From NCBI GenBank assembly GCA_965216875.1, contig OZ244207.1, forward strand, positions 5,536,001-5,600,000: 64,000 nucleotides of DNA, given 5' to 3'. Below are positions 63,262-64,000 of this stretch, in pieces. Below the pieces are notes generated by a model, which was not told the origin of the DNA, made no database searches, and saw only the letters and a list, made by a program, of their open reading frames with translations. Both the position numbers and the translations under genes were made by a program. Within the stretch, counting starts at the first letter, position 1. Each line of letters begins with the position of its first letter. The DNA is from Rubripirellula sp. (GTDB lineage Bacteria; Planctomycetota; Planctomycetia; Pirellulales; Pirellulaceae).

Positions 63262-63459
63262 CCCGAATGAAGAGAAATGGAAATGTGCGAGCTTTGTTCG
63301 CCGCGCGACCGAGTTTCTTGGCGACGAGGGTTGAGGACTTGGCCACCGTTGTCAATGCCGGACGTTTTGATGAACCACCATCGCAACATCAGCCGCGCCC
63401 GCAAGATTGTGATGCATGGGACAACCTCAACTCTTTTCACAACGCTGAAACTTAACCCG

Positions 63460-63499
63460 TGCCGGATCTGTGTCGCTGTCGCCCCTTGATCCGGCCTAC
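63460..63499 (-). repeat. REP-like family A copy
   Basis: Reverse complement of the family A consensus, downstream of the comM fragment. Confidence 0.85.
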
Positions 63500-63515
63500 G
63501 GGCCGGCATCGACGC

Positions 63516-63929
63516 TCAAACCCAGAGGTCTCGGTCGAGGGAGCGGTAGGCGATCGCTTCGGCGAGGTGCACGTCTTTGATGTCGGCTTCGCCTTCGACA
63601 TCAGCGATCGTTCGAGCAACCCGCAAGATCTTGTCGTGCGCTCGTGCCGAAAGGCCCATCTCTTCGACACTGTGGCGCAACATCTGCGTGCACGTTTTGT
63701 CGAGCTTGCAGAACGCGCGCACATGTCGGCTGGTCATTTGCGCGTTGTATCGCACAACCAACTCGCTGCCATTTTCGTTTTCAAACCGGTCGGCCTGAGT
63801 CACACGCGCGGCCATCACCTGCTCGCGCATTTGTTCGCTGCTCGTTCCCCCTTTCGACTCGGACGACAGTTCCTCAAACGGCACCGCGGGAACTTCGATG
63901 TGCATGTCAATTCGATCCATGAGAGGGCC
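63516..63929 (-). pseudogene. comM: 3' fragment of a YifB/ComM Mg-chelatase-like ATPase, truncated at the 5' side
   Basis: GPLMDRIDMHIEVP...LSARAHDKILRVARTIAD...HLAEAIAYR is the ComM C-terminus. An in-frame TAA lies 17 codons upstream of the Met, and no frame of 63930-64000 resembles ComM. Confidence 0.8.
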
Positions 63930-64000
63930 GCCACTGTGTGCAACTCCATGGAATTGAATTCGCGAAGATTAGGTGGGGAGTAGCGGCGTAAGGTCCAAGA

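Follow-up and report, generated by a model that had tools for sequence, protein, structure and literature searches.

A comM-inserted element of Rubripirellula sp. whose large serine recombinase gene spans the att site and may exchange a ClpXP-tag-like tail on integration

Introduction

Homologs of comM (Mg-chelatase) are the targets of 12.4% of predicted site-specific large serine recombinases (LSRs) (Durrant et al. 2023, PMC10083194). As these LSRs and sr1 of the Wolbachia phage WO (PMC9203015) are described there, they share with the locus presented here the type of enzyme, short attP and attB sites, a 2-bp core, and a split comM. In the ssrA islands of Dehalococcoides the 3' end of the gene for the LSR DsiB always overlaps attL or attP, an overlap also seen here (McMurdie et al. 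2011, PMC3146451). Its authors suggest that DsiB is perhaps fully functional only on the circle (PMC3146451). The Myxococcus phage Mx8 also carries attP within int, and the new 3' end acquired on integration changes the activity of the enzyme without killing it (PMC6070905). The att site of SSV-type suicidal integrases is likewise found within the integrase gene (PMC7253208). In the phages BPs, Brujita, and Charlie, integration strips off a proteolysis tag at the C-terminus whose coding sequence spans attP, a form of ClpXP sensing (Broussard and Hatfull 2013, PMC3694055).

The locus analysed here lies at the edge of a 64,000-nt stretch of the Rubripirellula sp. genome, referred to as the window. 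We consider it fairly probable that a 43.3-kb element was inserted into comM by its LSR, and that the integrase made from the free circle carries a conserved ClpXP-tag-like tail which the integrated copy lacks.

The split comM gene and its junctions

A preliminary description of the window, made from its letters, held that comM is interrupted at the window edge by one end of a mobile element extending to the right. The minus-strand letters that it quoted agree with a re-read of the edge, and both claims were borne out. The fragment at 63516-63920 (minus strand) matches Pfam Mg_chelatase_C/ComM with an E-value of 2e-31. A genome search with PF01078 traced the 5' part of the gene to the second junction 43 kb downstream (43,268 bp further on), where it ends in an I-S-G-P-L motif. 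Alone, the 5' part scores 442.6 bits against YifB TIGR00368 (cut-off 362.4), which identifies the target as a gene for a YifB/ComM Mg-chelatase-like ATPase. The two halves are in register, and in silico excision gives a 518-aa ComM in frame. The intact comM of a genome of the same genus (G002) has the homologous motif. The window edge is almost certainly the junction of an LSR element in comM. The coordinates of all features are collected in Table 1.

Table 1. Features of the split comM gene and of the inserted element. Extended window coordinates (above 64000) are genome C1 positions minus 5,536,000.
Feature	Window or extended position	Genome C1 position	Strand	Remarks
comM/yifB 3' part	63516..63927		-	Pro codon (S-G-P-L motif) through stop codon
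Crossover core, 2 bp	63928..63929		.	CC on +, GG of the Gly codon on -; centre of attP symmetry
Circle-form integrase coding tail	63929..63991		+	20 residues past the junction codon, then TAA (63989-63991); ends ...IRWGVAA
Element, whole		5599930-5643197	.	43,268 bp; its first 71 bp are window 63930..64000
Element-side att arm, 19 bp	63934..63952		.	Inverted partner of the far arm, 17/19 matching
Ankyrin gene	extended 64688-65236		-	In the element, beyond the window
T2SS-like gene set with PMT-family gene, 2255-aa Rhs protein, and candidate immunity gene	extended 74451-97191			L001:11451 to L002:16191
Phage-like module: MerR-like HTH, DnaD/O-like initiator, DnaC-like loader, tape-measure-like gene	extended 98444-103832		+	
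Large serine recombinase (LSR)	extended 105598-107307		+	Crosses the far core
Far att arm, inverted, 19 bp	extended 107173-107191	5643173-5643191	.	Pairs with 63934..63952
Second core copy	extended 107196-107197	5643196-5643197	.	Far junction
comM 5' part, codons 1-381	extended 107198-108340	5643198-5644340	-	Outside the window

The foreign DNA begins at 63930, directly after the CC at 63928-63929, and not near the TGT at 63935 where its start had been placed. This TGT and its ACA partner are both inside the att arms. The window junction is attR, reading in the direction of comM. Comparison of the two junctions found a common 2-bp core with 19-bp inverted arms and no target duplication; beyond the CC core the junctions have only scattered bases in common. 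attP is therefore an imperfect inverted repeat around the 2-bp core that it shares with attB, and it contains no long duplication. In the 8.26-Mb genome, the sole other match of the 19-mer arm at two mismatches or fewer is its inverted copy at the far junction, so the arm is more than a chance resemblance; one additional match appears at three mismatches.

In runs X1 and X4, both from one sample, single contigs span the window junction with 0 differences, and an X4 contig spans the far junction, also with 0 differences. The two runs possibly represent the source sample, so they exclude a join error but contribute no independent biology. Their assembled contigs are unbranched at either junction; such contigs drop rare variants, and the lack of branching therefore says nothing for or against an excised circle or an empty site. 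Related comM contigs of metagenome run X5 (about 96-97% similarity) end close to both junctions, only a few bases away, and so weakly hint at alternative occupancy.

Another genome of the same genus (L060, G001:C8:444000-460000) contains a 504-bp partial comM duplicate, 96% identical, that ends exactly at the present insertion site. It sits 5.3 kb from a full-length comM bearing two frameshifts, and is likely the scar left by another element at the same site. Just beyond the comM stop, at window 63458-63501, there is a short palindromic, REP-like repeat with very many copies in the genome; in the sequencing contigs it shows up as numerous loose ends and high depth.

The integrase gene and its two predicted ends

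The LSR gene adjoins the att site and encodes Resolvase, Recombinase, and zinc-ribbon domains (Pfam PF00239, PF07508, and PF13408, all above their cut-offs). In the integrated state its frame continues past the far core into 36 residues of antisense comM and then ends. Because the crossover core is inside the last codons of the gene, the integrase encoded by the free circle would have a 20-residue tail of its own. The segment coding for this tail is silent as a part of the integrase in the integrated state, and the window's 70 foreign bases double as att arm and coding tail. The predicted circle tail ends in Ala-Ala, and the host tmRNA tag ends in LAA. ClpX recognises C-terminal Ala-Ala. Both ClpX and ClpP are encoded by the host genome, and for the circle tail to act as a ClpXP degron we would give an even chance.

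A second LSR of the same family is present in this genome (L030, G000:C1:605042-606739). It has 43-46% identity and ends beside a tRNA gene array.

Related recombinases and other comM elements

LSR matches at E<=1e-45 were found in 36 of 300 family-level genomes, and the named matches are Planctomycetota. A phylum-wide search, in which three candidates were scored per genome, gave none at E<=1e-60 in 400 other genomes. Among the fetched loci, six other genomes have the LSR beside a split comM with both junctions retrieved; together with the present one they make up a set of seven comM elements. In all seven the LSR frame crosses the core, the comM motif is restored in frame, and attP is symmetric by alignment, with DNA symmetry scores of 12/16 and 13/16 for rebuilt elements. 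The insertion site is the Gly codon in five of the seven and a Pro codon about 40 codons upstream in the other two, and both orientations are found at each site. Four other genomes share the Gly-codon core. One of them, G582, has the element in the opposite orientation and thus fixes the position of the core independently.

At the Gly site the integrated tails are 1-36 residues long and consist of antisense or off-frame comM. The circle tails of the rebuilt elements are 14-26 residues long, with a hydrophobic strand close to the end. The related comM elements measure about 9-22 kb and carry either primase/polymerase or capsid/tape-measure sets; given such varied cargo, the LSR module appears to be common to varied satellites. 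The closest rebuilt comM element (L222, G582:C12:987500-1004500) has capsid, head protease, tape measure, and primase genes in about 16 kb and, judging by these genes, looks like a capsid-forming satellite.

Four more distant LSRs of the same family (L010, L012, L027, L028) have very short tails ending on the antisense strand of tRNA-Pro. Two others (L013, L026) have longer tails with a hydrophobic strand, i.e. the same overlap at a tRNA-Pro target.

Free-form tails and their conservation

Proteins with the predicted free end exist in databases. The last seven residues of P0007, a natural unjoined protein, are identical to those of the circle tail predicted for the present element, while P0008, 93% identical to P0007, has a short integrated end instead. 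Among 17 database proteins, P0007 ends in IRWGVAA, P0009 in GVAIAA, and P0014 in SMANAA. Of the metagenome and genome loci whose C-terminus is complete, five have an Ala-Ala end (L070, L071, L074, L079, L091), none of them beside comM, and three further loci (L072, L077, L088) are attP-state-like by DNA symmetry and lack this end. L070 reproduces the tail predicted for G704, and L072 the one predicted for G573.

Among the rebuilt elements, Ala-Ala ends occur in 3/7 circle tails vs 0/7 integrated tails, a difference that is not significant alone (Fisher p 0.19). In long host frames the background is 38/2735 (1.4%), and against it the 3/7 circle tails give a binomial p of 9e-5 with kinship ignored. 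After the L070/G704 and L072/G573 pairs are collapsed, 10/16 distinct free-form tails end in Ala-Ala, a proportion biased upward because part of the attP-state set was chosen by tail likeness. L071, L074, and L079 entered in this way (their symmetry scores are only 10, 8, and 9 of 16), P0007, P0009, and P0014 are counted as free forms from protein sequence only, and L026 and L013 (tRNA-Pro clade, free-form-like, no Ala-Ala) are left out of the count. The six remaining tails end in WGS, DSK, RTG, VAS, KTA, and RIA. All of them keep the hydrophobic strand, and the conserved function may therefore lie in this strand and not in the Ala-Ala.

The Ala-Ala forms are scattered over the integrase tree (7 changes for 8 rows). 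Their Ala codons and stop codons differ, and in the last ten codons G704 and L071 are separated by six synonymous changes (the stop counted) vs one amino-acid change. The tail residues 12-26 codons past the core are outside the 19-bp arm and are conserved with synonymous changes in integrases about 36-64% identical to this one. As the Ala and stop codons vary, conservation is at the level of the peptide and not of the DNA site. Judging from these codon patterns, the circle tail is very probably under selection.

Structure model of the tail

An AlphaFold model of the relative P0007 (96-row alignment, mean pLDDT 88.5) stands in for the circle form of the present integrase. In this model the att-encoded linker 525-540 has a pLDDT below 50, the strand 544-550 reaches about 78, and the last three residues are unpaired. 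Among solved LSRs, SPbeta aligns with Z 22.9 (rmsd 11.9, 473 residues aligned) and Bxb1 with Z 18.0 (rmsd 7.7, 372 aligned). The top matches mostly stop in the 518-526 range of the model. Three of the rows extend as far as 540-543, and residues 544-553 are not covered by any solved LSR. The tail is therefore an add-on to the canonical fold. Since this fold is complete before the crossover, the integrated form would retain it whole, unlike the split integrases of the SSV type.

Cargo of the element

From the window edge the element is arranged as ankyrin gene, cargo, phage-like module, and integrase. The type II secretion set of the cargo is near-complete and surrounds the Rhs protein, whose start looks signal-peptide-like by eye, and the candidate immunity gene is downstream of it. 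A similar gspEFG-glycosyltransferase-Rhs arrangement is found in G002 (38-79% identity by gene), and a 267-aa marker gene of the cargo is present in 12/200 family genomes with up to 11 copies per genome, so the module is recurring and not unique. From its gene content it may be a polymorphic toxin system that Planctomycetes export through the T2SS. No description of a T2SS-linked Rhs locus in Planctomycetes was found in the open-access main-text literature searched.

In the phage-like module, the MerR-like HTH (69 aa) is shared with three related elements, and a gene pair has homologs that, in other genomes, occur in prophage-like regions close to head genes. Scans of the larger ORFs and gap frames with Pfam, PHROGs, and NCBIfam gave no match for capsid, terminase, or portal; several ORFs have no family. 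Conjugation families had no match among the scanned frames of the element, and all six tyrosine recombinase matches of the genome are outside it. Viral contigs contain distant relatives only (38% or less) and none of the gene preceding the tape-measure-like gene, for which there was also no Atlas match of 0.9 or more. As capsid, terminase, Tns, and conjugation families gave no match among the scanned frames, the element is likely a defective prophage (a prophage remnant) or a satellite carrying the T2SS-Rhs cargo. It may no longer be mobile on its own. Position and family suggest the immunity role of the candidate gene and a directionality-factor role for the MerR-like HTH.

At L001:18444-18650 (extended 81444-81650) the N-terminus of the Rhs protein is encoded by a 39-bp tandem repeat of about six 13-residue units, which ARAGORN mis-called as two tRNA-Pro genes. 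The left 2.4 kb of the element (extended 64093-66570) has a counterpart of about 90% identity elsewhere on the chromosome, at 2.94 Mb (G000:C1:2938554-2944471). The ankyrin gene there has 96% amino-acid identity with that of the element, and the locus has an extra 3-kb gene inside.

Proposed mechanism and alternative explanations

According to the favoured explanation, the free circle would make an integrase whose 20-residue tail ends in Ala-Ala, and the tagged enzyme would be short-lived. Integration would then take place in a brief pulse that depends on the host protease load. In the integrated copy the tail would be replaced by residues from antisense comM, giving an untagged and presumably more stable form. 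Excision and restoration of comM by this form would need a directionality factor, for which the MerR-like HTH is a candidate. Extended to a whole Planctomycete integrase clade, recombination would serve as a proteolytic switch, with a strand and an ssrA-like Ala-Ala degron stripped on integration into comM or other targets. This extension is tentative, and we hold it with somewhat less than even confidence.

Alternatively, the circle tail could, as in Mx8, switch the structure or activity of the enzyme: the strand would dock on the C-terminal sheet and tune integration versus excision, and the Ala-Ala would be secondary. The hydrophobic strand in all free-form tails, including the 6/16 without Ala-Ala, agrees with this, as does the pLDDT of the modelled strand (about 78 in P0007), and integration of Mx8 alters both the int 3' end and specificity (PMC6070905). 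However, a switch of this kind leaves unexplained why 10/16 tails end in Ala-Ala against a background of 1.4% and with varied codons, and the canonical LSR fold is already complete before the crossover. We regard it as rather unlikely.

The overlap could also be a by-product of compact packing, with att at the gene end and a neutral tail. McMurdie et al. (2011, PMC3146451) gave such a trivial reading for DsiB, and the integrated tails, which range from 1 to 36 residues, cause no evident harm. The conservation of residues beyond the 19-bp arm despite synonymous codon changes speaks against neutrality and makes this explanation improbable.

Of the two leads given earlier for the type of element, the recombinase-based one stands: a large serine recombinase with a 2-bp core is found at the far end. 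The other lead was an AbaR/Tn6022-type, Tn7-like transposon end starting at the TGT at 63935. It could draw on the TGT/ACA triplets in inverted repeats at both ends and on comM being a known target of various elements (PMC12378983), but the junction has an LSR and arms centred on a 2-bp core. A 5-bp target duplication is absent, as the 5-mers flanking the triplets differ, and the Tn7-like end was rejected as having practically no probability. tnsA/B/C and tniQ had no match among the scanned frames of the element; a genome-wide TniQ search returned 0 matches, as did its controls. A deletion remnant or a misassembly at the window edge, which the preliminary description had named as contrary outcomes, is just as remote and was rejected, since the 5' comM is present in register, contigs span both junctions without differences, and other genomes have insertions at this site.

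Significance

The tail swap offers a testable answer to the question raised by McMurdie et al. (2011) of why serine-integrase genes overlap att, and P0007/P0008 are a natural two-state pair for it. When LSRs for genome engineering are mined from integrated copies, their C-terminus would be host-derived and not native, which could alter stability or directionality. The rebuilt att pairs, which cover two comM sites and both orientations, are ready-made integrase/att sets for Planctomycetes. If the proteolytic switch is true, ClpXP load would set the dose of integrase and hence the on/off state of comM, without a separate repressor.

Comparison with known systems

Insertion of LSR elements into comM is very common, and in this respect the present element is ordinary. 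In the passages on the Durrant LSRs (PMC10083194) and on WO sr1 (PMC9203015), att within the integrase gene or a tail swap is not described, and Planctomycetes are not named in the main text of Durrant et al. DsiB differs in its ssrA target and its DsiA partner, and the account of it in PMC3146451 describes no conserved degron-like tail. In the BPs group, as presented in PMC3694055, attP is part of the repressor gene and the integrase has its tag before and after integration alike, whereas here attP is in the integrase gene. What is present here of the BPs type is an attP inside a gene, the integrase, whose free form has an ssrA-like Ala-Ala end. What is absent is the placement of attP in the repressor gene of an int-rep-cro cassette; the far end encodes just a short tail.

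The Mx8 integrase is a tyrosine recombinase. The account of it in PMC6070905 describes no degron. SSV integrases are archaeal tyrosine enzymes that are cut into two inactive halves (PMC7253208), unlike the serine enzyme here, in which only about 20 residues past the canonical fold are exchanged. In the open-access main-text literature searched, no description was found of a serine integrase that swaps a degron tail. Overlap of integrase and att is thus already in print for DsiB, Mx8, and SSV, and the tail swap predicted here from sequence is the less usual feature and is well supported.
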